A stretch of DNA of 60,774 bases, counting the filler, from Hausera hauseri (lineage: Eukaryota), in NCBI GenBank assembly GCA_046269625.1. It is 11 parts of 11 records of this genome, joined end to end, with 100 filler letters (N's around TTAATTAATTAA, not from the genome) between each part and the next. Parts side by side here need not be neighbours in the genome. Positions count along the whole stretch, not along the records: positions 8,727 to 13,913 come from JBJURY010313275.1; 10 more parts are not named here. One strand, given 5' to 3'. Below are positions 9,218 through 60,774 of the stretch, piece after piece. The notes under the pieces are model-generated. The model was not told the origin of the DNA and made no database searches. It saw only the letters and a program-made list of their open reading frames with translations. Each line of letters begins with the position of its first letter. Position 1 is the first letter of the stretch. A program made the translations under genes and the position numbers.

Positions 9218-12200
9218 GCATCACGGTGTGACCGACTGTCCGACCGTCTGTCCAATGTCCGTGGGTCCTACGCCACGGTCCGTTACCTTACCACGTCAAC
9301 CACTAGGGCCAACACCGACTATTTCCTTTTTATTCTTCCTAAATAATTGTCATTTTATCACACTCGATACAACGTACTTTATAGACACATATTACTTGCA
9401 CAATTATGTGCTACACTTTGCTAATTTACCTAATATTTACCTCATTTACAACAACCTACCTGTGATTAATGTAAATTTCCGCAATCTTTTTGTTCATTCA
9501 TCCCGTTACGTCATTATTCACATGCACTTTCGTATCCGTGGTGGCATGGATCCTTCGGCCACCATTGACACTACTGACAAAACTAATTCTAAATTATCAC
9601 CTTTCACTTTTCACCAAAAATCAACGACCGTCACCACGCCATCTACTTTCACCACTTATACACCTTCCATTCCGCCATCCAAACACACTTCTCCGTTCAC
9701 AGAATACCTTATTGACCATGAAAAGTCCAGCAAAACCTGGCTTAACTTACAAACTTTGGCTGCAGTCTAACAACATTATTAACCCTTCAGCCAAAGCTTA
9801 AAGATTACTTTACCTCTTACCAAACTGAGTAAAAACTTCTCTTCACGATATTTTAGACATCTTTTAACAATCCGATCCGTACACTCATGTCTATAATGCA
9901 ATTTTGAAACTCACAGAACCGTCTACGGATTCTATAATCTATAGATTCTTCAACGATAACGCTATGGGTACAAAAAAACCATCAGATTTTCTCAGAACCT
10001 TTCTCGCTCATCTTCAAACACTTGGCGTTACAAAACAAAATAATTCCGATCTCTTACGACGTTACTTTTTAAACGCATTGCCGATCCAAATCAGAGCCCT
10101 GCTTACCGTTGTCGAGGAATCGACGGCACTAGATAAGTTAGCCGAACTTGCGGACAAAACGTACGAGATTTTACATTTAAACACAGCCTATCATTTCTGC
10201 AGCGCTTACAGCAAATGACAACACATTAGAATATCAAATTCAACAGTTGTGAGCCGAAAATGCAGCCCTACATAATACAATAAACAATATCAATGATAGA
10301 TTAAATGAAATCTCTTTGTCTCAACAGAAGAGTTCCACCTATGATCGCACATGCTCTGTACCAATAGGTCAGTCACCTTCTCCTGCACTATAGCTGATCT
10401 GTTTCTACCATGATAGGTTTGCTCATAAAGCACGAAAATGTCATTTTGGGTGCCGCTTTTACACCAAAAAGTATCAAGTTAACAACACTATTTGCATCTA
10501 CCACGCAAAATTTAAGAATGAGGCACATAAGTGTATTTTTGGTTGTACCTTTTGAAGCAGCACACAGCATACGAACGTCGGACTTACTGTCTTGTCTTCT
10601 AATAGCCGACCAAGTTTACCACTGACAAAAAGCTAATTCCACCACCAGAGCTTACGGCGAATCCTGGTGAAGGCCATTCATCAGTTTCTACCAGCCGAAA
10701 ACTTTCTTTCGGCGTATTTACCGTAAAGGCAGTAACTACGTTAACAACAACCCGCCACATAGACTTCCTTATAGATTCAGGTGCAGCGATTTCGTTACTG
10801 CCGCTCATCTTCCCAACTTAACACACTTCATCTAAAAATAAGCCTCTATTTACCGCTTCCGGACAACCGCTACAATTTTTGGTGCATGCAGGCTCTTTTT
10901 ACCCTTCCGATATTTCTTTCAGTGTTTCACTGGACGTTTACCGTTGCGAACGTCCAGATAGCCATTTTAGGATCCGACTTTCTTTCGCACTGTAATCTTT
11001 TTGTCGATTGCAAACAACGTTGCTTAACAAGTGGTTGCAATAAGGAGTGATTCGATCACTCCGATACAATTTCGCCTGTTGTACGGGCAAATGCAACTCG
11101 AAATCCTAGTATTAAGAAAACCGTTAAACAAATGTTTTTCTTATAATCATGGTACCTTGTTTTATAAATTACAAAAAAACAATATTTCTGACGATTGGGG
11201 TTTGCACGGCGATGAAAGTGTGGTGATTATCGCCATTTGAACACTTTGACCATAATGGATGCATACCCGCTGCCACTCATTAAGGATATCTTACACCGTC
11301 TCCATTCAACTACCATTTATTCTACCACTGATTTATCCAAAGCCTACCACAAAATTCCTATGGCACTTGAAGATATTGAAAAAATAGCCGTCACTACTCC
11401 TTTTGGCTTTTACGAATATCTGTACGTGCCTTTTGGCCTACGAAATGCTGCACAGACCTTTCAACGCCACATCGATGATATACGTTTTAATTTTCCATAT
11501 GCTCATTCCTATATCGATGACCTATTAATCGTTTCTTCTTAAACCCAACAACACGAAGAACACCTCAGATCAATTTTTTAACTTTTATACCAGCATAACC
11601 TGCAGATTAATTTCGCCAAATATCACTTTTTTCAGAAGCGTGTAAACTTCCTTGGTCACATTATTTCTTCCGAAGGCCACTCACCTCAGCCCGGTCTAGT
11701 TGAAGCGCTAAAATACGTGCAACTACTTCGAACAACAACAGAAATGAGGTGCTTTTGGGGCACTTTTTACTTCGCTCACAAGTATATGTGGTACTGCTCT
11801 GAATTTACCGCACCATTTGCTCATCTCAGTGGTGAAAAAAAACATCAGCCAATACAATGGACCCATGAAATAGTAAACGAATTCGAAAAGCTAAGGAAAG
11901 GTTTACCAACTGCAGAGATATTAGCTTTCCCTAAGCATGATACACAGCTGATCCTCACTACAAACGCCTCCACTACCGCTGTGGGCGCTGCACCTTATCA
12001 AATCTATAAGGGAAAGAACCAGCCTTTGGAGTTTTTTTCATGCAAGTTAACACTTCTTGAAAGTAGGAACTCAACGTTCTATCGAGAATTATTGGCCATC
12101 GTTCTGGCTTTAAAGCACTTCTCCCACCTACTTGTCGCTCGCCATTTTACTTTACAGACCGATTACAAGCCCTTCTTAAACATCATGGCTAGGAAACATT

Positions 12201-13913
12201 TTTCCTCACGCCAAGAACGACAAATATCATATTTTTCGACATTTAGCTTTGACATAAAACATATTAACGGGGTTAATAATTTGGTTGCCGATTTCTTATA
12301 TAGGACGGTTGGTTCGATTAATTTTTAAGTAATCTTTACTCAAGTACAACTTCAACAGAACTAGCCACCTCAGGATATGTTTAATTCTTTTAAGTCTTGC
12401 AATTGTTGACGGCTTGGCTTTAGACACTTCCAAACCAGGTCATTCCGTAATAATTCTCGCACCATCTTTACAACGGCAAGCTTTTAACAATGTACATTCG
12501 CCACACCACCCTGGCTCTAAATACACATTTCGTTTACTCCACCGAAAAATAGTTCGGCCATCAATGCGTTCCGACGTGCAGGCATGGGTTAAGGAGTGTA
12601 TGGCTTGCCAAAAATACAAAACAACTAAGAATTTCAAGCCACCACTGTTCCACGTTCCCTGCACATCACGTTTTAAATCTTTGCATATTGACATTGTTGG
12701 CCCTCTTCCTCCAGACAACGGTCATCAATTCATTCTCACCATGATGGACCGTTCCTCCCGATGGTGAGAAGCCATCCCTCTACGGATCACAAATACCGAC
12801 ACCATATCTGACGTTTTCATTCGTACATGGATTAGCAGGTTTGGATCACCCCGCTTTATTATCACGTACCAGGGTCCACAGTGTGAATCAAACCTGTTCA
12901 AATCCTTTGTCAACCGATTGGGGATCCATCACATACATACTACGCCTTATCAACCCCAATCGAATGGCCTTCTAGAACGTTTCCACCGAAGACTGAAAAC
13001 GTCACTAAGAATCCATACAGAGTCCAACATTAGTTGCACGAATCTTCTTCCATTTGTTCTGCTTGGCTGGCGGAACACTCCGTCTACTTCTACAGAATGC
13101 TCACCCACTGAAGCCTTATTCGGAATTCCTGTACGATCATTATTCGAACTTACTGCCATAGACGACACTCCAGTAGGTGAAACGATACAGACAGCGCAAA
13201 ATAACTTCGTTACAATCAGTAAATATTCGTTATGCAGGTTATTTCACAACCACAAAACATATTTACCTGAAAACTTGTATTCGGCAAAATTCGTCGGGCT
13301 AAAAAATCAAACACCGTGTAATTTTCAACAACGATATTTGGGGCCTTACAAACTCGTCCAATTACACTCCCACAATGCCATTATTTCTAAAGACAGTGAG
13401 GAAATAGCGGTGCATATCAACAACGTAAAACCCGCTTTATTCGTTGACAATAGTTCTCAAATTGAATCTTCTAACCCCTTTTTGACTCCTCCGCCTTTTC
13501 CCTTTTCAGTTCCTACACCTCCTGCATTCCTTTCCATTCCAGCCTCTACAATTGCTCCTTTACCAGAACCTACACCAAACCCCCCGTCTACTAACCTTCC
13601 CACTTTTATTTCTTTTTCTCCTACATTTTCTCCTCCAGCCCATTTTGCGTCTCTGACCGATGCATCACCTTAAGCGACGAAATCTGACATTGTTTTATCT
13701 CAGTTTCTTCTGCAACCAGATACACAGACATTGAATATTCGCAAATCCATCACATTTAGTACATACAGTAAAGAGATTAGCACTGCAGAGGTACAAAGTC
13801 TTATTCACACAAAAACATCCTAGACAGCCTGCATTGTTTCAACATATTTTCTACTTTCTTACCCTCTAGTCTCTTTTGTTCCACGGGAGGGGGGGGGTGA
13901 TGCTGTGCTGTTA
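9218..13913 (+). mobile_element. Ty3/Gypsy element of the Ubl-Gag family, copy 1: Ubl-gag-PR-RT-RH-INT, decayed
   Basis: 5' terminus ...GCATCA ends at 9223. Gag (DPY, KKPSDFL), protease LIDSG (~10770), RT YIDD, RNase H, integrase HPG...C-x2-C, IDIVGPLP, QSNGLLERFHR. PPT at 13885-13897 is followed by TGATGC at 13898. Part of RT appears replaced (about 11030-11240). Confidence 0.9.
9255..9545 (+). CDS. Ubiquitin-like leader fused in frame to Gag (ends IHMHFRIRGG, Gag Met at 9546)
   Basis: The 75 aa from 9321 to 9545 follow a ubiquitin-like pattern (FLFFLNNCHFITLD ~ IFVKTLTGKTITLE; YLIYNN ~ RLIFAG; IHMHFRIRGG ~ LHLVLRLRGG). Confidence 0.65.
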
Positions 13914-16899: not shown

Positions 16900-18208
16900 G
16901 TCAGCGATGAGTGTTATCTGTGCCGAAAAATACTACCGTTTTATGCACTCTAACGGCTCGTATTGGATCACGACTATTTCATCGGTCGATACTTGGGAGC
17001 AGAATGCAATTTATGCAATTTAGCAAGGCGAGTGCGATCATTCCTGCCGATGATCTTTCATAATTTCCGAGGTTATGACTCACCATGTTCTCAAATGGGC
17101 CATTAACGCCTTTCCGCACTGGAAACTGCATAGTTCCGACTACGATGGAGAAATACCTGTCACTGTCTGCTCATATGAACCGGTTCCAGGTACGCTTCCT
17201 TGATTCATTGCAATTTCTCAATGAATCATAGGCAACGATAGTAAATGCCTTGCCAGATGTGCCGATACCACTCACGCAGTTTGCTGCACATTGCACGCAG
17301 CAAAGGTATATATTGATGACTGCAACATTATATGAGCCACGCCGGACAGCAGGTGAATTACCGCCGTGATGGACAGGTGTTGCAGAAGATGAATATTGGA
17401 GCACAAGAATCTTGGACAGAACTGGGCTGTAGAAACATGTTAGATTACATGCTCCAGTATCTTAAACTGGACGTCTACTTATTAGCCGACGTGTTTCAAG
17501 CATTTCGGACCAAAGCGCTGACGGAATATAGGTTGGCGCCACTCAACTTTTATTCCATACCGGGAATGAGTTTTGCGTCAGCTCTAATGTCACTGGATCG
17601 AGACATTGAGCTGCTGCAAGACCCGGAGATGTACCGGCTGTTTGATGTTGGTATTTGCGGCGGCATGACATTTTTCAAGAATCATCAGGTCAGTGCTACC
17701 GATACCGCATCTCTACTGTATATTGATATTAATAATCTGTACGGCTCGGCGCTTTCGCAACCCTTGCGTACGGTTCATTCGAATGGGTTGTCGACAGACA
17801 AGATCTGGACGACATAATGGTCAATCTACCATGAGTATACATGGCAGGCTCAGTTGGATACCTGATGGAGGTTGATCTCGTGGTACCAGATGAGCTGCAT
17901 GACGTTTTGGACGATTTACCGGTAGCACCATTTAACCAATATCCACCAGGCTCAAAAGTGAAGAAACTGCTCATGACGCTGAACCGAAGCTGAATTACGT
18001 GATCCATTGGCGTCTGCTACAGTTCTACATACAGCTCGGTGTACGCGTCACACAGCTGCATCGCGCAATCCGATTTGCTCAGGCTCCCATATTCAAGGCG
18101 TACATAGATGGAAATTGGAAGGAACGAGCCGCAACTTGTGCAAAGTTTGAAAAGTATTACAAGCTGAAAAACAATTTCCTGTACGGAAAAACTGGAGAAC
18201 CTGAGTAA
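16900..18208 (+). pseudogene. pPolB fragment (exonuclease/palm region), frameshifted
   Basis: YLKLDVYLLADVF, GICGG, YIDINNLYG, YKLKNNFLYGKT. Confidence 0.85.
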
Positions 18209-18957: not shown

Positions 18958-21455
18958 TGTGGGACATCTACTGCCGCGGCACCACATAACCCCCGTGGCA
19001 AAGATGGCATTACGTAAAGCAAAAAAGTAAAAAGGGAAAACTGCGAGAAAAAAACAATGTCTGTGATCTTCTCAGTTTTTGTATGAACTAGACTTTGAAT
19101 CTTAACGTTATTTTGTTCCCTGCTATATTTACTGAAGGTAACTGTCTTGCTTGTTTGACGTTCTGTTTAACGGCTTGCTGAAATGGTTGGAGTGAAGTTA
19201 TATCTTGATTTGATATGTGAGCAAGTTGAAAACTGGTCGGTGTATCACTTAGTATTTCTTAATGATTTTCTGCGGATTTTAGGGTAGCAAGTTGAAGTGT
19301 AGATATATTGCAAGAAGAATTGAAGGAGTCAAGAAAGGTTGGTGCAGACTCAGCCGAGGAATCCGGTGTGTCATTAACGAAGAACGTAGGTTTCATGTTC
19401 ATTATGTGCGCGTTTTGTTCTTTGCCGTTTTGGAGTATTGAAATTGTGTGTGAAGTAATGTTGAGAATTTTAAACGGTCCTAAATAGTGCGGTTGAAATC
19501 CAGATGTTGAGGGATGTTTCAACCACACGAACTCTGCTTTAAAGAGTGAGTCACGTAAATATGTTTCGTCGCCGTGTATTATTTTATAGAAAGAGTCTCG
19601 ACTTAGCCGGACGAAATGATCTTGTGCGGACCTAATGGTTCCGTCAGTCGTTGTGTTGTCTTAATTGGTCAGTTCAAAAACTGCACGAATTGTGGTGCCG
19701 AAGAGTGTTTCAGCGGGTGTGCAACCGATGGTGGTAGAAGGCGTGTTGCGCCACTCGAGTAATTTGAATGGAAGAATGGTAGCCCAGTTCGTATGTGTTT
19801 CGGCTAGCATTTTGGGGAGATTTTAAGAGTTCTGTGAAATCGCTCCAATAAGCCGTTCGGCTGGGGATGGTATGGAGTAGTAGGAATATGGTTCATGCCC
19901 AGTCGATTAACTAAGGATTTGAATAGGTTCGATTCAAACTGGAGGCTTTGATCTGTGATAATATATGGCGGTGAACCAAACCGACTAATCCAAACTCTTA
20001 TAAAGGCATCGCCGATGGAGTCAGTGTAGATGGAGCGCAAGGGAACAGCCTCGGGCCAACGAGATGCGCGGTCCATCGTTGTTAAGACGAACTGGTGGCC
20101 ATTATCAGAAGGTAATGGGCCAACAATATCTAGCTGAACTGATTCAAAGCAGGACGTACAGGGGAAATAGAATAATGGTGGCTTAAGATGCTTAGCTACT
20201 TTGAATTTTTGGCAAGCCATACATTGCCTAACCCAACCCTGTACGTCAGATCTCATTGATGGCCATGTGACGTGACGTTTGAGTAGACGGAATGTAGCCT
20301 TCGAAACTGGGTGATGCAAGGAATGAATATGGATGAATGCTGTTTGTTGAAGAGAAGGTGCCAAAATTGGCAAATGGTGCACAGGTGTCGAAGTGTCCAT
20401 GGCTACGCCATCAATAATTTGGACAGATTTATATTGTTTAAGTATTTCAGTAGAAGGAGGATTCTAAACCAATTGTTCTTTAGAAAAAATAGGCATGACG
20501 CTAATTGCACTAACCGATAGTGACAAAAAATCCGCTATTAAATTATCGGTGCCAGAAATGTGGCAGATTTTAAAGTTGAACGTTGACAAGTACGAAATAT
20601 GACGTTCTTGTCGAAATGATGGATGCTTCATGTTCATTACGTGAACGAGGGGCTTGTAGTCTGTTTGAATGGTGAAAGACTGGGCGATAAGTAAATGTGA
20701 AAAATGTTTTAATGGCTAAAACGATGGCCAGGAGTTCCCTATCGAAGATGGAATAAGGGCAGTCTTGTGACTGGAGCTTACGTGAAAAGAATTCTAGTGG
20801 TTCATTTATTCCTTGAGATATTTGATGGAGAACCGCTCCGACGGCTGTGGTTGACGCGTCGGTTGTCAGGATGAGATCGGCACCAGGTTTTAAATTAGCC
20901 AAGATTTCAACGGTTTTAAGATTATTGCGGAGCTCATCAAACTGGTTTAAAGGTTCTGGCGTCAAATATAAAGGTTTCGTCTTTGGTCTTGCTCCTAGTT
21001 GAGGGAAAGGAGCAGTTAACTGGCCGCAGTGTGGGACATACTTATGAACGAAATGCAAAGCTCAGAGAAAGCTGCGCATATCAGTTGTAGTTTTTGGCAA
21101 TTCGATATTTCGTAATTAGTGAATTCTATCAGGCTGTGGACTGTGACCGTCAGGCGTGATGATGTGGCCTAGGAAGTTGACTTTCTTTTGAAAGAATGTA
21201 CATTTTGCGAAGTTAACCTGTAAGTTCTTGTTGTGCCGGCGTTAAAAAACAAGTTTGAGGTGTTCAGCGTGTTGCTTAGGTGAAGATGATGCTACCAGTA
21301 TATCGTCGATATATGTGTAAGCGAATGGTAGGCCTGAAAGGATAAAATCGATATGCCGTTGAAAGGTTTGGGCTGCGTTCTTTAAGCCAAACTGCATGAA
21401 GGCGTATTCGAAGAGGCCAAATGGTGTTATTATCGCCGTTTTTGGATGTCTTCAG

Positions 21456-22499
21456 TGTGGTTGGCTGACATGTTTACCTTTTGTTGTGAATAGGTCTGAT
21501 CTGGGTTTACGATAATTGTTATACCACTGAGGGAATGCTTTGGTGACATTGATCCATTGCCGCTTTTCGGTGCACCTGATGAGGATATGTAACAATGATC
21601 AACGCCAAAATTCGGATCATCGCACGGTTTAACACCGATCATGAGATTACCGTTCAAAATACGTCCGTTACGCGATTGAGCAAAGACGGCGTGCATTCGA
21701 ACTTCAAATTGAAAATGCATCCAGTTGCCACTGTTGGGTATATATTTCTTCTGAATAACACCAATTTCCGAAAGGTATGATAGAATTAATTGGGATTCGG
21801 TTGATGAATAATTAAAAACTGTCACTCAGTTTTCCATAGTTTTATTTTCGTCTTCTGCCTTTGCATTAAAACGTTTATGACTATTGTAAAAATGACTTCG
21901 TTTTGAACTATTCAATATTGCCGGATACCGTGATAAAACGACTGAAGAATTGTCATTTTGGATCATTTTGCATGTCGGGGATTTATTCCAATTACTGGCA
22001 ATAGGTGGACCATTTCTTCGTCGACTGTGATGGAATGATTCTTGACGTGTGATATCTCTAGATTGACGAGTGTCCATTTGCCTTGTATTCAATGTACTAT
22101 TTGACAATTTTGATTGGTTTAATACGGATTCATTAGCAGATGATAGATTCATTGCTAATAAAAAATTTGGGGAAACGCCCTGCTGTGAATTGGAATTGCA
22201 ATCAACCAAACTGTCATCAAGTGGGGAAAATACATTCTTTCTCATTGTGCGCTCAGAAATTTGAAATCAGCAAATTCGGCAACTAATTACAAAAAAATCC
22301 GACAATCAATTATAAATTTTTTTTGATAATTATAGCACAAAGTACAAAAGTTTACATCACCTCCAAAGTCCGCTAAAAAGGAATAAATTCAACTACTTTC
22401 GAAATTCACAATTTATATTTTTTCCATATTTTAAACAAAATCCATTTACATAACGAGATCCACTTGCAGATCACCAATTGGGTGAATATAGGCACCACA
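21456..22499 (-). mobile_element. Solo-LTR-like unit TGTGGT...ACCACA with 5-bp TSD, carrying NUP35 sequence
   Basis: Splits RT cleanly (VAP|EDIQKTAIITPFG). Flanks are ttcag (21451-55) and tttag (22500-04). It starts with the same TGTGGTGCC as the post-PPT terminus at 18986. Confidence 0.85.
21470..22245 (-). pseudogene. NUP35: NUP35/Nup53 5' fragment (RRM), intron-less, with a premature stop
   Basis: (W>stop)VTVF...GNWMHFQF...NGRILNGNLMIGVKPCDD matches the Nup35 RRM WVTVFGF...GNWMHIRY...DGRIFGESIMIGVKPCID. Confidence 0.88.
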
Positions 22500-24768
22500 T
22501 TTAGGCGCTACTGGTATTTGGTGGTAGGCTTTTTCTAGGTCTAGAGTGGAGTATATTGTAGTTTTATGCAACGAATGTAAGATGTCTTTTATCAAAGGTA
22601 AAGGGTAAGCATCCATGATAGTAACATTTTTAAGTTGACGATAATCGCCGCATAGTTGGAATGTTCCATCTTTTTTGGGTACCACGTTAAGTGGTGAAGC
22701 CCAAGGTGACTTTGAACGGTGGATTATTCCTGCTTGTTGAAGTGACGTGAATTCAGATTGAACTGCTTGTCGGCGGCTTGGTGATAGTGGCCTGAGTTTT
22801 TGCCTGATTGGACGAGGATTCTCGGTGATGATGTGATGGAATGTCGAGCTCGTTGGTCTAAAAGTTGGATCCTTTGTGATCGTGTGGGAGCAGGACTTAG
22901 TTATGTATTGCTGGATTTCTTGACTTAAGGAGGCAAATGGCGTGGTTAGTAAATTAGATGGTTGATCAATGTCAGAACTGGATATGATGGATATTAAACT
23001 GTCTAAATCGTCTTTGTCAACGTTTTCTACTTTGCTACCATTCGATGGAAATATAAAATTATCAAAATCAGTAGTGCTGAAATACATATTCGCATCTAAA
23101 TTAGGTAACGATGTTTTTAATATGGGCCTGACAAACAAGGCAGGCTGCGCAACCGATGGAGAGTTATCTGTATACGTTGAATTTTCTTGACTGTTTGTAA
23201 CTAATCTACTGTGTATACAGTCTACTACGAGGTTGTAGAAAGATAAAAAATCGGAGCCAAGTATTGGTGACTGTGTGTCGGCTACGGTGAAGGTCTAGAT
23301 AAAAACGTCAGAAAAAGGCTGTAACATGAACGAGATTTTGGACGTGCTGCACACACGTAATGCTTGGCCATTGGTTGTATATAATTTCTTGGCTGACGGG
23401 GAAAGAGTTTTAACTTTGGTAGACGAAGGCAGAAGAGACACTGCTGCTCCAGAGTCGATTAAAAAATTAATCGATTGAGTGGGCTTAATTGTTATTAAAG
23501 TGTTTAGAGTAAATACGGTATAAGTACATCTGTTACGGTAGAGATATTTGCCTATGCCAACATGAGCCGAAACATCTGGCAGCTTTATCCGTTTTTTGGA
23601 GGTACAGGATTTAAGTTGTTGGAAACAGTAGGCTGTGGGAAATTGGAACGGCTGACGAAGGTGCAACCGGCAATGAAGTTGCGCGCTTTGGTGTTAAATT
23701 TATTATGATATATACAGACGATGTCACGTCGTCTGAAACTAGGCGCATAAAACCTACATCCTAAACAGAATTTATTAATATTATTTTTGAATTTGGTGTG
23801 ATAGTAACACACTATCGGTCGCGCAAGCGACATAGTAGGTCTAAAATTTTGAGACGAAGTACGGCTATAGCCCGCATCAAAACAATTCCGTCTCGGCATT
23901 GTCAGGGCATCTATTTTTGACGTGAGTAATGAGATTGTCTGATATATATTGGCGTTTTCGGTACGTAAAAATTTATTTGCTTGTTCAAATGTGATATTTC
24001 GTTAATCTGTTGTGTCATTGAAGTTTGTAGCGTAGCGGCGACTTATGGCGGTGATTGTGAATGTAATATTTCGTGACTTTTATCAGCTAATTGTGCCAGC
24101 TTTTGCAGTGTCTCTGTATCCTCGACTATTGTTAGGAGTGCACGAATGTCTCTCGGTAGAGACTGCAGAAAGTATCTGCGCAGTAAATCAGCGTTATTCG
24201 CCTGGTTGACACCCAAAGTGCGCAACTAAGTTAATGCGGTCTGAAGGAATTCGGAAGGTTTTAAGTTTTCTATAGTGTTATCATTAAAGTATTTGTAAAT
24301 AATATTGTCCAAAGACAGCTCCATGAATTTTAGGACTGAATTAAAGAGGGAACTATGTTAGGATCTCTTAATTACCAAAAATCTGAATTAAAAAAATCAA
24401 AAAATCGATCAGAATTCCAGTGACCTTTTTGAATTTGAAACCTTTGAGAGAAATAATGATTTTCCCAATCAACAAAAATGCCAAAAAGTAAAAATCGAAA
24501 ACGAGCATGAAGACCAAGAATCCAGCTAAACAAATTCAAAAACCGCATTAAAAAATAACAATCCAAACCGAAAAAGTTCAAAAAAACAAGCCAAAAAGCC
24601 ACAGAACAAAATTCAAAAAAAACTGTATAGGTCGCTGCTTTGAAATACTTCTGACAAGTTGGAAAGTTNNNNNNNNNNNNNNNNNNNNNNNNNNNNNNNN
24701 NNNNNNNNNNNNTTAATTAATTAANNNNNNNNNNNNNNNNNNNNNNNNNNNNNNNNNNNNNNNNNNNN

Positions 24769-25460
24769 CAATTGGGTATAAGGGTCAGAGTGTTGAAAGA
24801 TGTCCAGTAAGTTATGGATTGAGGCCTTTATAGAGTTTGGTAGAAGATAAAGTAGGCTATGGGCTTTGGATAAGGAGTCTGTGATACCGTTGGATTGTAA
24901 CCAGAGTTGATAAAAGTGGAGCCACGGTTTGCTGGACTTTTCATTATCTATAAAGTAGTCAGTACAATGTGGAGAAGTATTAATAGGATTTTTGTTTGAA
25001 GAATTTGCGTCGATTGAAGTAGGTGGATGATTTGGTCTGGTGTAGTAGAGCATGGGTATTGCCTTTTTTGTGGTGGTCGCCAATTTTGGTGTCAATGGTT
25101 GGCGAAGTGTTCATGCCACCACGGATACGGAGATGTATGTTGAAGCAAGTGTGATTTGAAAAAAAAGGTAAAGTTTCGTTGAGATGTATGATAGTACCGT
25201 GATGGCTAAGGTAAAAGTCGGAAGAACCAAGCAAGGAAGAAATGCAGGTCTGAAAGGTGAGAATGTGTGGATGTTTTGTATTGAGGGTGTAGATACTGTT
25301 GAAAAAAACAAAAATGAAAGTGGGTGCAGTGGTGCGCCTGGGGGCGTGATGTGGGGCCGACTCCGAAGCGCCATCCGACCGACCGCAGCAGGGTTGGCGG
25401 TCGGAACCTCCGCCTCGACGAAGCAGGCAGCAAAATGTGGGATAGCCGAGTTTTCCCACA
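24769..25460 (-). mobile_element. Ubl-Gag Gypsy copy 2, 5' end: 25-bp TGTGGGA...TCCCACA terminus (25436-25460), Ubl (25374-25115) and start of Gag
   Basis: FNIHLRIRGG|MNTSPTIDT, then KPWLHFYQLWLQSNGI...SDPY homologous to copy 1. One frameshift lies in a T-run. Confidence 0.85.
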
Positions 25461-26455
25461 AAGGTGCCGTCATTGCTGCTCGGCATTTCTGAATCGCCAT
25501 CATGACATCTCTAGGCTTAAGTGCATCGCGATAGTTCATAACAATCGATATGAATTTTTCTTTATTTAAGTCGGTTTTAGTTGTTTGGTTACCTTTCAAG
25601 GAGACACCCGTTGTGATTTGTTCGACCAATGAACTGACATACTTAAATCGTGTTTCGTTCAGAATTGGAGAATCTCGCATTGTTGCATGGTGTATGCTTG
25701 GGTACGGTATTGAATTTGTATGTATTTCTTTCAAACCAGAATTCATCGTTGTTTTAAATCGCGCTGACGCTGTAGGTGAGCTAATCATTAGAGATATTAT
25801 TCGATTGAGGTTAGAATAATATGGTGAATTCCTGAACAATAGATATTTACAAACGTCATAAAAGCATTATTAAAAATTATACACAAATCACACGTATCTT
25901 GTGTTGTGACTATGAAATACGCTATTGTTTGGTTCAACGATTGCCGTAGGCATTATCGACCTGGGGAATAATGCCAATTGTATTTGGTTTATTTTGGGAT
26001 AATAAACGGCTAATTGCTGCATTATCAACGTACCAACTCTAGACCCCGTATCGCCATCCATACTGTTAATGACGATAAATGCATGCGAATTATTCGTTTT
26101 TTCAGCTAACTTATATAGCCGCGGTGGGAATAGTCTTAGTAATCGTACACCAGAATTGAGACTTCGTCGAGCAAAACTGTTACCGGAATCTTTACAGTCA
26201 GTAATCATTGATTCTCTACTAGAAATATTTCGACATGCACCAGTCTTAAAATTATTTATGCATGTGGGCTCTGAATCGCTGAATATAGCCCTTGGATTCA
26301 ACTTACAGTGGTTTACTGATTTGGATAATACTGTCGTTCGGTCAAGTTCGCTAGTCAAATCATTATCTTTTAATGTTTTTAGTCCATCTAAATCAGTGGT
26401 GTGTTCAAGACACAATAATTTCCACAGTGCACTGGTGCACTGCACACCAAAATGG
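25461..26455 (-). pseudogene. Divergent alpha-tubulin, intron-less, 3'-truncated and frameshifted
   Basis: GVQ...LWKLLCLEH, PRAIFSDSEPT, TAIVEPNNS, YSNLNRII...TASARF, NYR...PRDV are collinear with alpha-tubulin. Confidence 0.88.
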
Positions 26456-26489
26456 CAGCAGTTGTGTATCCTTCGGTCACCAATTTCAC

Positions 26490-26680
26490 AGACACCAGAC
26501 TGCTTAGCATTAGTTAATACATCTTCAGATGTGTGCAGGAGATTTTCCATTTGTTTCACGGTGAATTATCAAACAGCAGGAACTCGGATATCAACATCAA
26601 GAAGCTGTGCGGCAATTAATTCAATATTCTTGATACCCTCGATTCGAGTCGATTCAATCAATACAGTAACATACCATTTC
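26490..26680 (-). pseudogene. AP3D1: AP-3 complex delta subunit internal fragment
   Basis: WYVTVLIESTRIEG...LIAAQLLDVDIRV...VKQM...GVCEI matches AP3D1 WYISILVELTRLEG...LIAAQMLDVAIRV...VSQM...GICEV. Confidence 0.8.
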
Positions 26681-26825
26681 GTTCAATCGGTTGATTGAAT
26701 CGTATCATTTATCGACAAAAGCAATTCGTATGTCACAGAAATTTTTGCGAAAATGGCCATTAACCATTGACAAATGTAATTAAGAAATCCAGGGCCGGAG
26801 TAGAAAAATGCTTTTGAATTTGCAG

Positions 26826-26913
26826 CGTATTTTTTGTATAATCTGTTCATCTGTTCCAATACAATAAATGTGATGACTGCATGAGGACCTATTCGCAGAT
26901 AATACGGCGTAAA
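26826..26913 (-). pseudogene. SLC25A11: C-terminal fragment of the mitochondrial 2-oxoglutarate/malate carrier, fused in frame after TRMT11 sequence
   Basis: FTPYYLRIGPHAVITFIVLEQMNRLYKK ~ FTPYYARLGPHTVLTFIFLEQMNKAYK. Confidence 0.75.
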
Positions 26914-26914
26914 A

Positions 26915-27830
26915 ATTTTCTGTGGATAATTAACATGACTGTAGTACAGATGTGGTCGATATTCCTTCGTCATGATTTTCAAACACTTCTCCCTTACTCC
27001 ATAAGGTGATCCGTTAGAATGACTTCGAATTTGAAACCTGTCCGCAATATTTTATCCAATTGTGACGAATCACCGATGAACACGTCACCAAAACAGGACA
27101 GAATAGCGTATTGTTAAAAATTGAGTTTTAAACATTTATCCTTCGATCTCCAGACCTCATCTGCCTTTGTGGATTTACCAAGTCCATGTGCGACGTTATA
27201 GTCAATATCTATACCAAAAACGGTAGCACCACAATGCCCAGAAACTACTAAAAAACTGCCAGTGCCAACAGACGGATCCAAAACGACATGGAATTTATCC
27301 ACTCGGCCGAGATGATCCATTAGAAATGATAGTCGAACATTCATGCTGATATTTCCAATGAACTGCCGTTCGGACAATTTATAATTATTAATCACCTCAC
27401 ACCGTTGACTGACTTTAACAAGTCTACCGTAAGACAGTTTGTCCGGCACGTCCACACACGACTTTTGGTTTTTTCGTATGGATAATCAAGAATCAATCCT
27501 AATTCTACATCTGGTTGTTTCAGAATCAAATTGATATTGCTTTTGCATTGTTTATGATTTGCAAATATTTTTTCAATTAAATCGACTTTTTCTTCAATTT
27601 TCAACCTTTTGTGGCGAGTTTCAACATTCGTACGATATAAAAGTTTTTTCGCAATTATGCCATTACTATTCATATCATTAAGTTAAGATATATCAAAGCA
27701 CAATTCTTTCATCGTATCAGCAAATGTCCAAACTAAGTAGGCGCATTGAATCGAAATGGATTTCTGACAACAATTTGTTGACTTTTCGAGATATACTGTA
27801 TGTAAGAAAATTCCCAAAGAATAAAGGGTT
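26915..27830 (-). pseudogene. TRMT11: tRNA m2G10 methyltransferase TRMT11 fragment, intron-less and frameshifted
   Basis: RQFIGNISM...LSFLM...VLDPSVGTGSFLV...GIDIDY, followed by PYGVRE. Confidence 0.85.
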
Positions 27831-30276: not shown

Positions 30277-31800
30277 AACGTCATGGAAATCTTTTGACAA
30301 AGTGGAATTGCCTGCTAAGAAGGACTTTTGCAGTAGAATTTCAGACACGGACATTAGCGATGCGGACTATGAGCATGCTCAAAAATTCTGGAAAGCATTC
30401 AAATGTAGGACAATAGGGAATATAGGGACATCGATCTCCTCACATATATACTGCTGCTGACGGATGTATTTGAAATTTGTTGCATGTCACATTTAAGAGC
30501 AACAAATTGGATCCAGCTCATTTTCTCACAGCTCAGGGAATTAGCTGGGCAGCGATGCTACGCTATACAGGCATACGGTTCCAAATCTTGAAGGACTATG
30601 ATATGATCCTTATAATCGAGAGAGGCATTCGGGGTGGAATCTGCCAGGCCATTCACAGGTATAGTGAAGCAAACAAGAAATACATGGGAGAATATGATAC
30701 ATCCAGGCCATCATCATACCTGGATGCAAATAACTTATATGGATGGACAATGAGTATCCCATTGCCATATAAAATTTTAAATGGGTGGAGCATCCTGAAG
30801 AGCTGTCACGCAACCACGAAATAGGAAACACAAGAAGTTTTTATGCCACTTGGATGATCGGGAGATGTATGTAGCCCACTACATAAATCTCAGCAGGCTA
30901 TGCGAAACGGTATCAAAGTCACAAGGATCCATTGTACCCTATCCTTTAACCAGTCTATGTGGTTGAAGCCCTACATAGACTTCGACACGCAGCTGAGGGC
31001 CAATACCACAAATGACTTCGAAAAGTATCAATTCAAGTTGTATAACAGCTCGGTCTTTGGCAAAACGATGGACAACATCCGCAACGGGATAAATATCGAG
31101 TTTGTGTGTGATTGGAAGAGCCCGAAGAGCTGATTGCCAAGTCCAACTTCCATTCCAGCACAATATATACAGAAAACCTGGTAAGCATACATATGCTCAA
31201 GACATCCCTGGAGTTTAATAAGCCGATCTATGTCGGGATGTCAATCCTGGACTTGCAAAGACCCTGATGTATGATTTTCATTACAACATCATGGTCTTCA
31301 AGTTTAAGGATCTACAGCTGATGTATATGGATACTGATAGTTTCAGCTATCAGATCGATACGGAAGATCTGTTTGAGAACTTTGCTAAATTGTCTGAGCA
31401 TATGGATACGTCTGACTACCCGAAGGAGCATCCCAACTATTTAATTACAAACAAGAAAGTCCTTGGGAAATTCAAGGACGAGGTGCATGGGGCAATCATC
31501 TCGAGATTTGTGGCTATTAGGTCCAAAATGTATGCGATTGATATATGTGGTAAAGTAAAGAAGCGGATTAAAGTGGTTCAAAGGGCGACTTTAGTTAAGG
31601 AGATTGGCTTCATTGACTATGTGGAAGTTCGGCACGAGCAGACTCATATCATTTCAGAGATGCAAAGGATCCAGTCTAGGGCTCATACTATTGAGACAGT
31701 AACGTTACAGAAGAAAAGCCTAGATTGGATGGACGACAAGAGGCAGGTCCTGGGTGATGGAATATGCACATTACCTCACGGGCATGTTGCATTAATGTAA
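30277..31800 (+). pseudogene. Maverick pPolB, same family as 4918-7050, frameshifted
   Basis: IERGIRGGICQ, YLDANNLYGW, NSSVFGKT, YMDTDS, DDKR...PHGHVALM. Confidence 0.92.
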
Positions 31801-32489
31801 ATATATTTAATATGATGTGTGGTATTTTTTGTATTAATAAATCTTATAAAAATATCGTGTTGTCTTCTTGATCAAGTAATGTTGGATATAGGATAAGGCC
31901 AACCATTTTTCACAACACATTTATTTCGCAAAAACATAACTATCACACTACGTTAAACACTTTTTATAAGCACAATGTAAATCATGTTCACGCTAAATAC
32001 ATGTAATGTTCTTTGGTATTGATACCAATTTGCCTCATTCATATGCACATATTTGTAATTCTGGAAATGTAATGTTAAATATCTTGTTCTTTCGCCCATC
32101 AGCATGATCCTTGACATAGAACGCGGCCTCACGTATATCACACAGTGTCAATGGCTCGCATGAAGCAATCTTTGCAAAACTGGGTATTATATTCTTCCCA
32201 CGTCAGTTTATGATGTTGCGTCAAATACGCATGTTTTGCTTGTGCTTTGTTTATGCAACAAGGTATTGTCGGTCTATAAGCAGCATATATTGCATGTACT
32301 ATACTAAAATTCACTTACGCAAATACATAATGTAGTGGATTAAACATATTATCCACTGGCATTATACACACCTCCTTTATAATGTATTCATTATTATTAT
32401 TATCCACAAATCCCTACAAGTGAATAAACAAGGCAGCCATAATTTTATAACATTTATTAACACAACAACAAAGTTTATAACAATTTTAT

Positions 32490-37209: not shown

Positions 37210-38448
37210 NNNNNNNNNNNNNNNNNNNNNNNNNNNNNNNNNNNNNNNNNNNNTTAATTAATTAANNNNNNNNNNNNNNNNNNNNNNNNNNNNNNNNNNN
37301 NNNNNNNNNAACGTTCTTTTGATTCATCTGATATTTTTTCAGCTATACCTGCCTACGAAATTCTTCGACGTTAATGAAATACGTATAGTAAAATAATTCT
37401 TATGGATAAACGTTCTTTTGATTCATCTGATAATTTTTCGGCTATACAGATTTTTCTAGGATGAAAATAATTTCATTATCATATCTGTTTTACTAACGAG
37501 GAATTAAAAAGAAAAAATAGAATTACAAGGATGTGTTACTGGATTGCAGCTGAGTATTTGATTATAGTATGATTTCTTTTATTGCTTTAGATGTATGTAA
37601 CTTGCAATATATTTTTTGTCATTCTTTGAAGTGTGTATTTTGTTTTCTGTAATAATTGTCCGTAATTAATTTTGGGTTCCCTTGATAATGTTTTGAATGT
37701 TCAATTTTTGTGTGCAGCATTTTTGAAGACTTTCGAGTCTGTTTAGAACATCATGAAGAATTTAAGATGTTCTTTTGGCCAGAAAATTCTGAAATATATT
37801 TCAATTGATAATTCTATGCTTAAAGGTGTTAAGAGAAATAAAAAATAAGTAAAAGCTAAATTAATGTGTATTTATTTTTATAAATTGTGTTCTGGTCAGT
37901 TATTATTTTAAAGTAAGTATATATGTATGTATATGCCCTTCTTCTTTTTCAGCACCGCTTCTTTATGGTGCCGTTGACGAAGTTTCTTTTTATTTTCGTT
38001 TTAGCTTCAGCTTTCGGTTCTAATTCTTTAGGCTGTTCTTAGGGTTATTTTGCATTGTTCTAATGGCTTTGTTGAGCATATTTCACAGATTTAATATTCT
38101 TAAATGTATATTTTCAGAGTAATAATTTTAATTTTTGAGAATTTTATGATTTTTATTAAACTTCTGCACATGTAAGCAGTAAATGCCAGTAGTCTCAAGT
38201 GCAATTTAAAAAAAAAAAAAAATACTAATTGGTGAGAAGTAATTGCTATTAATATGTGTAATTCTTACTACAATAAGAACTATTTATGCTGATATTTTCT
38301 ATTGATATATGATATTCAACTACTTATTACAATATGAAGGTCAATTTTATTATGTTGCAGTGTTTGATTTAAATGTGCATGTATTATTTCAATTGAATAT
38401 TTTGTGATTACAATTAATTTAAATGTAACTACATCTAATTCTTAAACT

Positions 38449-39394: not shown

Positions 39395-39452
39395 CTGTGG
39401 GTTCTTGCAATAAATATAACACCAAGTCTACTACACTCAAAGCAAGGACCCA
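39385..39452 (+). promoter_or_regulatory. -1 programmed ribosomal frameshift signal (T TTA AAC plus downstream stem)
   Basis: The heptamer at 39385-91 is in the gag frame just before the stop, and pol is in the -1 frame. After a 6-nt spacer, TGGGTTCTTGC (39398-408) pairs with GCAAGGACCCA (39442-52). Confidence 0.8.
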
Positions 39453-44383: not shown

Positions 44384-44800
44384 CGTTGAATAACCATTCT
44401 GTCTTATTTCTAAGTCAATAATATTGATCAAAAGGCATCTGCTATATTATGTTTTAAATACTGTATGTTTTAAATACTACCTTAGACAAAAACATGGTAA
44501 ACTGCACGTCAACTAGCATCACGCAACAAATAATCTATCACATCATCACAACTCGTGTCAATGTAAATACAAGCACGTGCGCGCGCAAGGACACACACAC
44601 ATACATACATATATGAAGTCCCGAACTTACCACATAAAGCCGTGCACCGGTTAAAGTCTGATTCCGTAAGTTATTTCCTACTGGCCGTGAAAACCGAACA
44701 AGACATCTTTATTTCATTCACTGCTTCCGTTAACACGACACACAAAACATAAACAAGCAACAAAATGTAAGCAGAGTTTATGCTGCGAACTAAATCAACA
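44384..44800 (-). mobile_element. Possible LTR of another family inserted into the Gag of copy 3
   Basis: Gag homology stops at TGTTGA (44800, minus strand) and a TCAACG end lies at 44384. No TSD. Confidence 0.35.
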
Positions 44801-45530
44801 CCAAAGAAACGCTGCATAATAATGTCCATGGACGGTTCGGTGATCTTTAGGACTGCATTAGAAAGATGTGAATATGGGTCTGGAAGTTGAACGATTTCAA
44901 TGATGTTATGGATGCGGGTTTTGATGCTGTTAGGCAGTAGGAAAAGAAGTTTATGGGCTCTAGTTAGAGCCGGTGATGTTATTTGCTTGCAGCCAAAGTT
45001 GGTGAAATTGCAACCAAGTTTTGCAAGAATTCTGGTTGTCGATGAAAAACTCGGTGCAGTTGGGGAAAGGAGCTGAAGAGGTAATAGGAGAGAGGTTGTT
45101 GGTGGAGTTAGGAGTGGGCTTTTGGAGTAGTATGACAGGTATGGATTTTGTGGTGGTTTTATCCGTGGTGTCAATGGTTGGCGAAGAATTCATGCCACCA
45201 CGGATACGGAGATGTATGTGCAGGCAAATGTGGCTTGATAGAAATGTTAGGGGTCCGTTGAGAGGTATGATAGCGTTGTTATGGGTGAAATAAATATCAG
45301 AAGAATTAAGTAGGTAAAAATGGACGTCCAAAAGGTGGGAATGTGTGGATATGGTGTAGTAAGGGTGTAAATATGTGTATTGTTAAAAAAAGAAAATAGA
45401 AGGGGAAGGAGTGGTGCGCCTGAAGGCGTGGTAGGGCCGACGCCGTCCCCTTGTTTAACTGGTGCTGCACGTTGTGTAGTGGTAATGTTCGATTGCGAAA
45501 CGATTGAAATGTGCGCATAGGAGACCTACA
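44801..45530 (-). mobile_element. Ubl-Gag Gypsy copy 3, 5' end: 56-bp TGTAG...CTACA terminus (45475-45530), Ubl (about 45440-45194) and start of Gag
   Basis: LHIHLRIRGG|MNSSPTIDTTDK, KTWLQFHQLWLQANNI, PDPYSHL...ITEPS; frameshifted. Confidence 0.85.
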
Positions 45531-46710
45531 TCTACCAACAACTGCACATTTACATATATGCGAAGGAATTTCGGGCATTATTTGGACAAATATTTTATCC
45601 TTTAAAGTAAACTGAACCGAAATGATTTCATTGTTTATGAACAAATTCAAATGGGGAGCAATACCATCGGGTGAGGCGAAACCTATTCGACCAATGGTAA
45701 TTGCGGTGTTCTTGTGGAAGGTTTTGGGTGTCGAATTGTTTATAACGGTCCGTTTGTCCTTTCTCTTTAACCTCATAAAAATGGTCTTATCTGCTAGTAG
45801 TGATATTGCCGTTCCTTTGAAACAACAAGATACAAAATACGGTATAACTTTCATCGTATCTTCCACCACCTTCTGGACTCTTTCAGAAAACAGATTAGGG
45901 TCTTGTGCTTTACTATCCCTGTTATCATCATGATCAGTACTTTCGACTGGTAGATCACCGTATAATTTGACAAATATCAGCAAACACAATTCTTCAACTT
46001 CGATCGAAAACTGATACTTCTTATCGTGGTTCTTTGTAATCTGATCATTAGCAACAGCAGCAGTCATACGCACTTGATTAACCACAGACAGTACGTACTC
46101 GTACACGTGACGAATGGGCATATATTTTCGGTAAAGAATCAGCAGACCGTGTAAAATAGTCGACGCTCTCGGAATTGAAATTAAATGTTCTTGCAGTTCC
46201 GATGAAGTTTCTGCTGCCTCTTTGGCGGAAACGAAATGAAAAATAAGTTCCACGCCGATTTCAGCGTCAATAACAATAGGTGCAGCTCGTTCCAATAAGC
46301 ATTTCGGCGTTTGTATGATACTTTTCTTTTTAGTAGCATCAAAGTTCAATTTCACCAGATGACCAGAAATGGTCTTTTTGACCTTAGAAATTATTTTGAC
46401 CACCACCAGTCGGCTGGAATTTGAATCGACAAATGTATCCAATTGGGATAGAAGTTTTTGGTCGCTACGCAATAGTCCAAAAAATTTCGTCAGATTATTG
46501 AGTTTATCTTTGTTGGGCAAAAATTCTGATATGCGTTTGGCTTTTTCTCGCAGTTTAATACTGAGTGCGTTGGGTAGTGCTTTCTCTGATGAAGATGCCT
46601 CCTTCAATAATTGGACCGTTTCACGCAGTAAATTGATTATTATGACTTGGTTTTTGAACATATAATGAATAGTTTTAGCACTCTAAATATTCGATGTAAT
46701 ATCGCTGCGT
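45531..46710 (-). pseudogene. PDS5: PDS5 cohesin-regulator internal fragment, intron-less
   Basis: LRSDQKLLSQL, KCLLERAAPIVIDAE and IGRIGFASPD ~ PDS5 LGDDEKLRSQL, KFLLERIAPVHIDSE and LGHISMLAPD. Confidence 0.82.
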
Positions 46711-46711
46711 T

Positions 46712-46870
46712 TGTGGCAGCAGTGTTTGAGAAAATTCTGCACTTGACGAGGATGGGCGTACACTCAATCAGTGTGTTGTCGTACTCCGCATGATTCGCAT
46801 TGCACCATACGCCGGTCATAGTACGGATATTCGCAGATACAATCAATAACGACATCGCTACTGGTGCTAC
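46712..46870 (-). pseudogene. PHD-finger fragment (PHF20/MLL5-type)
   Basis: VIDCICEYPYYDRRMVQCESCGVRQH. Confidence 0.75.
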
Positions 46871-47179
46871 ATTCCCGTTTCTCCGAGCCCGATAACTTCT
46901 GCGATGTTTTGCACGATTTAAATGGTGCTCTATAGATGGGTGTATAAAGTGTCAGAGAACGCAAATAAAGTATGAAATCTGGATTATAGTTGGAGTCACT
47001 ATCATCTGATGAGTCTGTACTGCAATCACTGTATTCTGATGCAGATACACACAGATCGTCGTGGACTTCAACAACCTTTATTTCTGGGTGGATAGTCATT
47101 TTCATTCAAATACTGTTTGCGCGGTGTACAATTTGTAGATGTATTATCCGTGTCCTGAGAACTGTTCAGGTCACATGGA

Positions 47180-48032
47180 CATAAGTCGAGCGAGGTGGAA
47201 TCTGTCGAGTCATTATACCTAGTAGAAATGGATGATCTATCGACGTTGGAATCATTAAAATAAGTGTGAAGTAGCGAAAGTATTGCCAAAAACAATTCAT
47301 GGGCATCGTGCTGATTGTAATCAGCCAAATCTTGGACGTGAGACCAAATTATATAGAGGAGATTTGTGAGTACCAATGGAGTTTGAATGGGTTTAAAGCT
47401 TTCGTGATTATGCGAATCATTTCGCATGCCAGGCGATCTCGACTCTGTTTAGTATTTGGACACCGATGCAAATCTAACAGGAGATAGTCCCGTAACCCAG
47501 GAGTACGAGTAAAAGCCTGAACGATAACATTGAGGAAACAGGTGTTGCCCATATTAACAAGCCATTTGGTCAGTTTATTACTATCGACCGGTGTAACGAA
47601 TTTCAATAGATAAAAATCTTTCATTTCAGGACGCCATGCTAAATCGAATATGACAAAATTGGGGAAATAAAGTTTACGGCATTGTTGAATAATTTCCCCG
47701 GAATATCCATGATATTGGACATCGCAACATTCATGGCGATAGACTTCACCATGTTGGAGTAAAACGTTTATTGCATGGCCTTTCTCTGTTGACCGCTCGC
47801 GAATGTGCCAATGTTGCCGAAAACCGGAAAAAATACAATGAGCGCACGCCATCACGTCAGAATAATCGGGGCATTTGAAATTCGTGCATCTTTTACAGTT
47901 GAAAAATACTTTTAATTTAAAGCCCTGATCTGATAAGGGAAATACGATCGTGCTAATTAAATTGCGAATTGCCAATTTATTTGAACGATTTTCAAGAAAT
48001 CTCGTTAAATGAACGCATGCCATAATTATCAT
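47180..48032 (-). pseudogene. USP22: USP22/nonstop 5' fragment (ZnF-UBP plus Cys box), intron-less and frameshifted
   Basis: MACVHL, ACAHCIFSG...H, LVNMGNTCFLNVIVQAFTRTPGLRDY, LADYNQHDAHELF. Confidence 0.88.
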
Positions 48033-48536
48033 GCAATTATAAACAATACTTGCAATATGTAACAGAAAATGTTACCTTGTTTTGTTGTGACACGTAAAGC
48101 ACTGAGAAAACAAATAGTTCGTCGAGTCAGGCCGGAGGCAGGTCTGATACCAATTTATTGTGTTAATGTAAATAAATTCCGGTCTCGATCGCAAAAAATA
48201 GACTGAGAGAATGTATCAATAATCAATTGATACGATTATTGTAGTGTCAAAATGGCAATTTATCAATAAATTCGAATTGAACAATTTTCAAAATGACCAA
48301 ACAGATAATCTAAATATTCAATATAGATGAGATAAAATATATAACCGATGTGATTCCAAAAATAGCGTTTCTTTTGATTAACAAATGGAAAATGTATTGG
48401 TTTCAAAATAAATAGATATGAAAATCCAAAAATAACNNNNNNNNNNNNNNNNNNNNNNNNNNNNNNNNNNNNNNNNNNNNTTAATTAATTAANNNNNNNN
48501 NNNNNNNNNNNNNNNNNNNNNNNNNNNNNNNNNNNN

Positions 48537-60575: not shown

Positions 60576-60774
60576 AAAATGAAATATGACTGTCAAGGTA
60601 TTGATTTATATACATCGTCCTCCTAACGTTTGATAGGTTCATTCAAATAGGAATAAAATGATCGGTTCAAGTAAGACAGTGTAGGTTGGTGTGGTTATAT
60701 TTTTCATTATTCCAAAAATCCTTTTGAAAAATTGTGAGTTTTTAATTCTACTCTCCTAAATGAACTATATATTT

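Follow-up and report, generated by a model that had tools for sequence, protein, structure and literature searches.

Why would the capsid protein of a retrotransposon be made behind a ubiquitin? This question is raised by a Ty3/Gypsy element of Hausera hauseri, the remains of which lie in a stretch of 60,774 nucleotides from assembly GCA_046269625.1 (the window, taken at its full length, filler included). By its genes and elements, the host is an animal. The window is made up of 11 AT-rich contigs, all short, with N-linkers of 100 bases between them, so that the three copies of the domain discussed here stand on separate pieces, and all element copies in it are dead. In each of the three, a ubiquitin-like domain ending in Gly-Gly (GG) directly precedes Gag. 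Judging from sequence, we put at roughly 0.7 the probability that a host-derived ubiquitin domain fronts Gag in a CsRn1-like clade and is likely cut after GG by a host deubiquitinase (DUB), which would give Gag a fixed N-terminus.

A preliminary description of this DNA had placed RIRGG, followed at once by the Gag Met, at three sites, and the motif does start at 9531 (+), 25129 (-) and 45208 (-). A six-frame scan of the window for [RK]x[RK]GG gave five matches, namely these three copies and two unrelated ones. Copy 1 is intact in frame from the ATG at 9255 through the domain, as had been stated, and its frame is open even from the contig edge at 8727; the Met of a relative, P0007, stands at the same distance from the last Gly as this ATG. 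Frameshifts had been ascribed to both other copies. Copy 3 has two inside the domain, whereas the domain of copy 2 (25336-25115) is intact and phase is lost only within its leader, which runs from the ATG at 25374 to the domain. Over 283 bases, copies 2 and 3 share 76% identity, and their leaders differ by a 2-base indel.

Does the domain belong to a family beyond these relics? A search with the capsid part of copy 1 led to P0003, an intact open reading frame (ORF) of 515 residues with the same domain, ending RLLGG before a Met. With P0003 as the phmmer query against 1.84 billion representatives, 2176 matches were obtained at E 0.001, and the top 150 of these were used; the N-termini of 45 relatives were inspected by eye and the domain profile was then run over all 150. 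By this profile, 31 rows among the best 150 of 2176, P0003 included, carry the domain, and P0090 starts inside its tail. A profile built from the 31 database relatives, with zero window sequences, returns to the window well above chance: it gives 16.3 bits to copy 1, 33.1 to copy 2 and 24.5 to the intact 45-residue part of copy 3, scores reached by none of about 3000 shuffles each. Among 1868 six-frame pieces, copies 2 and 3 are the only matches under E 0.01. Copy 1 is absent from these matches within its long ORF, and when its domain is scored by itself it comes out above all 3000 shuffles. Copy 2 still passes when its last 10 residues are removed (23.3 bits, 0/5000 shuffles).

The ancestry of the domain is visible at family level. 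Profile A5 comprises 25 rows, with the Pfam-positive clade members and P0077 excluded and none of its rows, where scanned, having a Pfam ubiquitin match of its own at E 0.05; it aligns to residues 2-76 of mono-ubiquitin with E 5.8e-6. The domain of P0026 is identical to ubiquitin at 55 of 76 residues (counted from the match line) and scores 81.5 bits in Pfam. On these two comparisons the domain ahead of Gag is ubiquitin-derived, and the captured ubiquitin-like domain proposed earlier is borne out. PF00240 matches 10 of the 30 relatives scanned, two above the gathering cut-off (P0026 and P0077) and eight below. As single sequences, the window domains gave no match in Pfam, PF00240 included, and none in PDB; as single queries against a 5.8-billion-sequence database they yielded no useful hit among 286 candidates, and an Atlas search with the P0003 domain returned nothing useful. 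A profile of the three window copies meets ubiquitin through the tail alone (4.4 bits per domain; 8% probability).

A beta-grasp fold had been expected, and AlphaFold2 predicts one for copy 1, with the order strand-strand-helix-strand-strand and a predicted local distance difference test (pLDDT) score of 74-89 over residues 31-90, using either alignment, with ubiquitin-like rows in or out. The best structural match of the model is SUMO1 (Z 9.8, root-mean-square deviation 1.9 Å, 71 residues) in a list filled by ubiquitin-like domains, and the best Foldseek match is NEDD8 (E 1.4e-3). The domain is thus predicted to adopt a beta-grasp. As a separate observation, the Gag of P0026 is 54-64% identical to those of sisters whose domains match its own at just 24-26%; the P0026 domain has probably been captured anew from host ubiquitin, or else is a gene-model chimera.

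Gag trees, built with the domain columns omitted, indicate that the domain is a trait of a whole element lineage within CsRn1-like Ty3/Gypsy Gags, and the placement of the clade rests on these trees. In a 151-row tree, a 43-row clade (Shimodaira-Hasegawa-like support 93) is made up of copy 1, 31 labelled rows and 11 late-starting ORFs. Eight of the eleven begin within Gag and three at a linker Met, too late to show the domain region, and the domain is present in 30 of 30 clade proteins whose sequence extends over that region. A more careful tree of 48 rows, midpoint-rooted and with P0019, P0029, P0052, P0090 and most canonical rows excluded, puts 27 of 27 domain-bearing Gags besides P0077 on one side of a branch (99/93); P0077 falls among canonical CsRn1-like Gags. 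P0077 has a canonical CsRn1-type Gag outside the clade and a ubiquitin-like domain, ending RLRGG before a Met, behind an upstream part that contains a RING; this single sequence is possibly a second origin of the ubiquitin-Gag fusion. The CX2HX9CX3C (CHCC) knuckle is the CsRn1 signature (PMC2582038). By pattern match it is doubled in tandem in 26 of the 31 domain-bearing relatives, canonical rows having at most one, and the Gag of copy 1 has two within 10397-10560 (+). No clear primer-binding site (tRNA-Trp in CsRn1) was seen by eye in the three leaders of these decayed copies.

What does the lineage retain of its ubiquitin? In alignment A4, which has 33 rows chosen with GG in view, GG is fixed in 33 of 33 directly after the last strand, and no region-reaching clade row is without it. 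The tail takes 18 different pentapeptide forms among 31 rows, every one ending GG. Position 73 is Leu or Ile in 31/33 rows and position 72 Arg or Lys in 26/33; the core positions are hydrophobic throughout, as is the domain itself. The position of Ile44 holds Thr or Ser in 22/33 rows and Ile in 2/33, Val70 is kept in 2/33, Lys48 in 11/33 and Arg74 in 10/33, and Lys is outside the six commonest residues at position 63. The Leu8/Ile44/Val70 patch and Lys48/Lys63 of a signaling ubiquitin are therefore not retained as a set. Selection, as far as the alignment indicates, keeps the hydrophobic core and the GG tail, whereas the Ile44 patch and the chain lysines are mostly lost.

This pattern bears on whether the domain leaves Gag at all. 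It might remain there as an aid to folding or solubility or as an assembly domain, with GG an inherited flexible hinge. A hydrophobic domain with a preserved core would serve such a purpose, the surfaces read by ubiquitin-specific proteases (USPs) are eroded, and cleavage is a prediction from the sequence pattern. A hinge, however, does not need GG exactly at the end of the last strand, where all 30 region-reaching clade rows have it, nor a hydrophobic residue two places before GG (31/33) and a small non-Pro residue after it (26/32, with 0 Pro), and these tail features stay while the rest of the domain drifts to about 25% identity. We consider a retained domain unlikely. It is also distinctly improbable that the cut occurs and the released domain is what matters, as a DUB decoy or a conjugated modifier, or as a recruiter of the endosomal sorting complex required for transport (ESCRT) while still on Gag. 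The cut would yield a free GG end, Arg or Lys is frequent at position 72, P0026 bears a near-canonical ubiquitin, and planarian Burro elements bear ubiquitin-system domains (PMC6431247). Against this stand the residue counts at positions 44, 48, 63 and 74 and the way in which surfaces vary freely from one sister element to the next, which is at odds with a host partner common to them all. ESCRT recruitment and conjugation fit poorly because of those same changes at Ile44, Lys48 and Arg74. Among the four roles suggested earlier (cleaved leader, folding aid, DUB decoy, conjugatable modifier), the cleaved leader fits best.

The residue after GG and the position of start codons point the same way. 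The Gag Met had been said to follow GG immediately, which holds for all three window copies but not for the family, where Met occurs in 4 of 32 relatives. Instead, M, G, A, S, T or V follows GG in 26/32, against a background of 33.5% in the next 14 positions, and Pro in 0/32, against 11.6%. Those six residues are stabilizing under the N-end rule, and DUBs cut poorly ahead of Pro. The domain does not begin with a conserved Met, since the closest Met on the upstream side is anywhere from 73 to 381 residues away from the last Gly, and 19/32 relatives have no Met between GG and the first capsid Trp. Since most relatives have no Met for a full Gag after GG, Gag would be read through the domain, and translation starting solely at a post-GG Met, which had been named as a possible refutation, would not give a full Gag in most relatives.

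Could the region nevertheless have ceased to be translated, being a ubiquitin retrocopy in decay or a nucleic-acid motif conserved where Gag begins? The three window copies agree in all 18 bases spanning RIRGGM and each has its own Met after GG, these elements pick up pieces of host mRNA, and the ratio of nonsynonymous to synonymous change (dN/dS) is weakly below 1. In run X1, however, third positions vary within the motif itself (9530, 9533); this variation, together with 18 tail forms in which GG is fixed, led us to reject the nucleotide-motif reading. In 31 database proteins, spread over a deep clade, the frame moreover stays open as far as Gag, and many of them, as said, lack a later Met before the capsid Trp. 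The idea is scarcely plausible and, on the sequences, largely refuted for the clade. Of 52 variants in run X1 contigs on copy 1, the 40 best supported fall 14:6:20 on the three codon positions, with 20 at the third position against 12.4 +/- 2.7 expected and no stop created. In 12 of 25 non-synonymous rows over half of the depth is unlike copy 1, as would be expected if this copy had diverged from its relatives. One run was found to contain part of the stretch, and no RNA run was listed as containing it.

These features suggest the following course. Translation would start upstream at varying sites, either within the leader or within host-gene sequence that the element has captured; ribosomes would continue across the domain and on into Gag(-Pol); and a USP of broad specificity would cut after GG, releasing Gag with a defined N-terminus. 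That a host DUB cuts after GG seems to us quite probable, on the indirect evidence of the tail and of the residue that follows it. Retroviral-type proteases favor hydrophobic residues on both sides of the cut rather than Gly-Gly. It is accordingly very unlikely that the element's aspartic protease, or a non-DUB host protease, does the cutting while the ubiquitin fold just presents the site: the element does encode a protease and the USP-binding patches are eroded, but the Gly-Gly site is unlike that preference and the tail holds the ubiquitin register R-L-x-G-G. Precedents are known: FUBI, with a non-Arg tail, is cut by USP36 and USP16 (PMC10611586) and SDE2 by USP5 (PMC13572447). USPs contact the Ile44, Ile36 and Phe4 patches (PMC10611586).

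What, then, is translated ahead of the domain? In each window copy, sense-strand host-gene sequence (cargo) runs up to the domain, different per copy and open for 198, 176 and 423 codons (0/3000 shuffles each; 0/5000 for the 198 codons of copy 1 in a further test). The cargo of copy 1 is recognized as leucine-rich repeat (LRR) sequence by PDB LRR proteins (best E 0.014) and by an Atlas feature score of 0.96 to LRR_6 clusters, with no Pfam match over 8727-9254. Any captured coding piece would be expected to have an open frame, and the 2-base leader indel between copies 2 and 3 obscures the original phase of the sequence upstream of them. Database relatives show homology from about the domain onward and divergence before it; for example, P0017 and P0019 share 86% identity starting about 35 residues ahead of the domain, and the 800 or so residues in front of that point are unrelated. 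At least 100 residues lie upstream in 18 of the 31 domain-bearing ORFs, and 3 of 119 other rows reach 400 residues in all. The upstream parts of some relatives include histone, cohesin or CNOT1 pieces. No DNA for the database relatives was found in two scans of metagenome contigs. A weaker step of the proposal is that the element would tolerate changing host cargo upstream because anything translated ahead of the domain gets trimmed off. Put more broadly, and tentatively at less than even odds, the captured ubiquitin may act as a translational insulator: translation would start in a changing patchwork of host genes and read through, and a DUB would free Gag, so that the element could exchange and express mosaics of host genes at no cost to its capsid. 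Such an arrangement would have arisen more than once (the clade, P0077) and sometimes been refreshed (P0026).

Several side observations concern these upstream regions. A methyltransferase-like piece joins the tubulin upstream of copy 2, within 25340-27485 (-). A stop codon overlaps the post-GG Met (ATGA) at 25111-25114 (-) in copy 2 and at 45190-45193 (-) in copy 3, and copy 1 is without this overlap; in copy 2 the ATGA stop terminates the tubulin frame, which crosses the entire domain.

A number of results weigh against cleavage of a translated ubiquitin leader. The main doubt on DUB cleavage is the erosion of the USP-contact patches: recognition by a host USP is not assured because those patches are poorly kept. 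Copy 1 alone has no Pfam or PDB match, and without its last 10 residues it fails (2.7 bits, 301 of 5000 shuffles as good), its body being linked solely via its nearest relatives (15/3000 shuffles). A tail-less profile comparison of window copies with ubiquitin-like rows gives 2-11% probability, and predicted folds depend on their alignments. Sister elements share 16-53% identity in the domain (82% for one close pair), in every case less than in Gag. The binomial p of 4e-8 for the residue after GG overstates the case, because the rows are related in the tree and are not 32 independent draws. Coding constraint, which dN/dS had been suggested to reveal, is indicated weakly: a comparison of copies 2 and 3 over 45 codons yields about 0.55, but the +1 frame yields about 0.68, not clearly different, and the synonymous excess in run X1 is not significant (15 against 11.5 +/- 2.6). 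The cargo is in phase in one of the three window copies (copy 1), as by chance, and the long upstream parts of the database proteins may be spliced gene models.

The remains of the elements in the window are listed in Table 1.

Table 1. Positions of the ubiquitin-Gag element family and its cargo along the window
Feature	Position	Strand	Remarks
Host leucine-rich-repeat gene fragment (cargo), copy 1	8727..9254	+	Stop-free, in phase with domain and Gag; cut by contig edge
Leader, copy 1	9255..9320	+	In-frame ATG 97 codons ahead of last Gly
Ubiquitin-derived domain, copy 1	9321..9545	+	Ends RIRGG; frame, shuffle tests, predicted fold, family profile
Broken Gag, copy 1	9546..10575	+	DUF7041-like N-terminal domain, capsid C-terminal part, two knuckles; frameshifts, stops
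Broken pol, copy 1	10690..13700	+	Protease, reverse transcriptase, RNase H, integrase in Gypsy order
Polypurine tract (13885-13897) and first 16 bases of 3' long terminal repeat (TG start 13898), copy 1	13885..13913	+	Repeat cut by contig edge
Further family copy, Gag C-terminal half and pol	19800..24357	-	Without 5' end; tblastn to P0003 273-502, 63% and 40%; RVT_1, integrase
Gag start, copy 2	24769..25114	-	Broken, cut by contig edge; DUF7041 E 0.074, tblastn
Ubiquitin-derived domain, copy 2	25115..25336	-	Frame-intact, ends RIRGG
Decayed tubulin fragment (cargo), copy 2	25340..26565	-	Enters leader; out of phase today; Pfam Tubulin, Tubulin_C; 176 open codons
Gag start, copy 3	44788..45193	-	Broken, truncated; tblastn
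Ubiquitin-derived domain, copy 3	45194..45413	-	Two frame changes, ends RIRGG
Host-gene mosaic (cargo), copy 3	45414..48071	-	USP-type hydrolase, PHD finger, transportin-1; last 423 codons stop-free, out of phase today

Copy 1 is the most complete. Its Gag matches the intact relative P0003 with a tblastn E of 9e-60. In pol, the protease is marked by a DSG motif and the later domains by RNase H, H2C2 and rve Pfam matches in order, and reverse transcriptase was recognized by reading the sequence, without a domain scan. The order from protease to integrase, the polypurine tract and the TG-start long terminal repeat (LTR) are those of Ty3/Gypsy; a second copy of this LTR start was not found above chance in the window. 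Copy 2 stops at P0003 Gag residue 276 (24769), and the copy on the next contig resumes at residue 273 (24357) after about 310 unrelated bases. The latter possibly continues copy 2 on the far side of the linker, the two being one element split by an insertion.

The window holds other features as well. An unrelated Gypsy element at 38446-43183 (+) has a Ty3 capsid, long pol ORFs and a Gag Met of its own, with no ubiquitin-like leader; a Ubiquitin_3 match in this element at 38446 (E 0.01, below cut-off, within the capsid) was dismissed as noise. A 688-residue ORF at 1875-3944 (-) resembles a secreted precursor, with a signal-like start and 76-residue Pro/Lys/Gln repeats each behind a Lys-Arg pair, and has no Pfam match. 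Decayed pieces of DNA polymerase B and endonuclease VII lie at 4339-7100, 17320-17817 and 30300-32350, which we take to be Polinton-like. A divergent TBP-like fragment lies at 60188-60592 (-; Pfam E 4.8e-8), and no tRNA genes were found in the window.

If the proposed cleavage is true, a host DUB would be an obligate maturation enzyme of a retrotransposon capsid and would offer the host a handle for control; such obligate dependence was not found described for LTR elements in the literature searched. The family would also be a natural experiment on what DUBs need, with dozens of ubiquitin descendants at about 25% identity in which only core and tail are kept. The insulator idea, if true, would explain how Gag stays uniform behind 5' ends full of host-gene scraps, and would provide a route for translation of mosaic host proteins.

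How does this arrangement compare with known systems? No description of an N-terminal ubiquitin on retrotransposon Gag was found in the open literature, with supplements, subscription journals, Repbase, Dfam and GyDB outside the search; the word "ubiquitin" is absent from PMC6338049, from the main text of PMC2582038 and from PMC13524379. The earlier remark of not being aware of such a case in Ty3/Gypsy elements needs qualifying, since the planarian giant gypsy Burro/GYPSM1 likewise has a ubiquitin-fold domain inside its polyprotein (PMC6431247). That domain is SUMO-like and internal, behind a Gag of CCHC type and among MATH and BCL-2 domains, and GG cleavage of it goes unmentioned in the excerpts of that paper. 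CsRn1, PwRn1 and AgCR, of the CsRn1 clade of Ty3/Gypsy, share the CX2HX9CX3C knuckle, the DUF7041-like Gag N-terminal domain and the Gypsy pol order (PMC2582038). Unlike canonical CsRn1, the present lineage has a doubled knuckle, an altered N-terminal motif and the ubiquitin domain, and forms a separate clade in the Gag tree. LTR-mediated retroposition (Tan et al. 2016, PMC5131818) also brings in sense-orientation pieces of host mRNA, mosaics included, and is a plausible route, by analogy, for both the ubiquitin capture and the upstream cargo; there the cargo replaces internal sequence, whereas here it precedes an intact leader-ubiquitin-Gag unit.

Among host genes, Ub-eS31/eL40 and FUBI-eS30 (PMC10611586, PMC8354635) and SDE2 (PMC13572447) have a similar N-terminal beta-grasp ending GG, from which a USP removes the leader to free the working protein, divergent tails such as LLGG being tolerated. 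They are host genes that start at their own Met. Here, in contrast, there is no conserved start Met, the sequence ahead is variable and the carrier is a selfish element.

Ubiquitin inserts in the pestivirus bovine viral diarrhea virus (BVDV) are cut by host DUBs. They lie ahead of NS3 (PMC13517609). There, on more than one occasion, RNA coding for host ubiquitin has entered the reading frame of a mobile polyprotein immediately before a protein that it releases (PMC13517609), and the same would have happened here. The BVDV inserts are recent, sporadic and internal (PMC13517609), whereas here the domain is fixed across a deep clade ahead of the capsid protein and, unlike theirs, has drifted to about 25% identity with GG retained. 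Cleavable ubiquitin-fusion leaders are already known; the present one would be a leader of this kind that has become fixed in a retrotransposon lineage.

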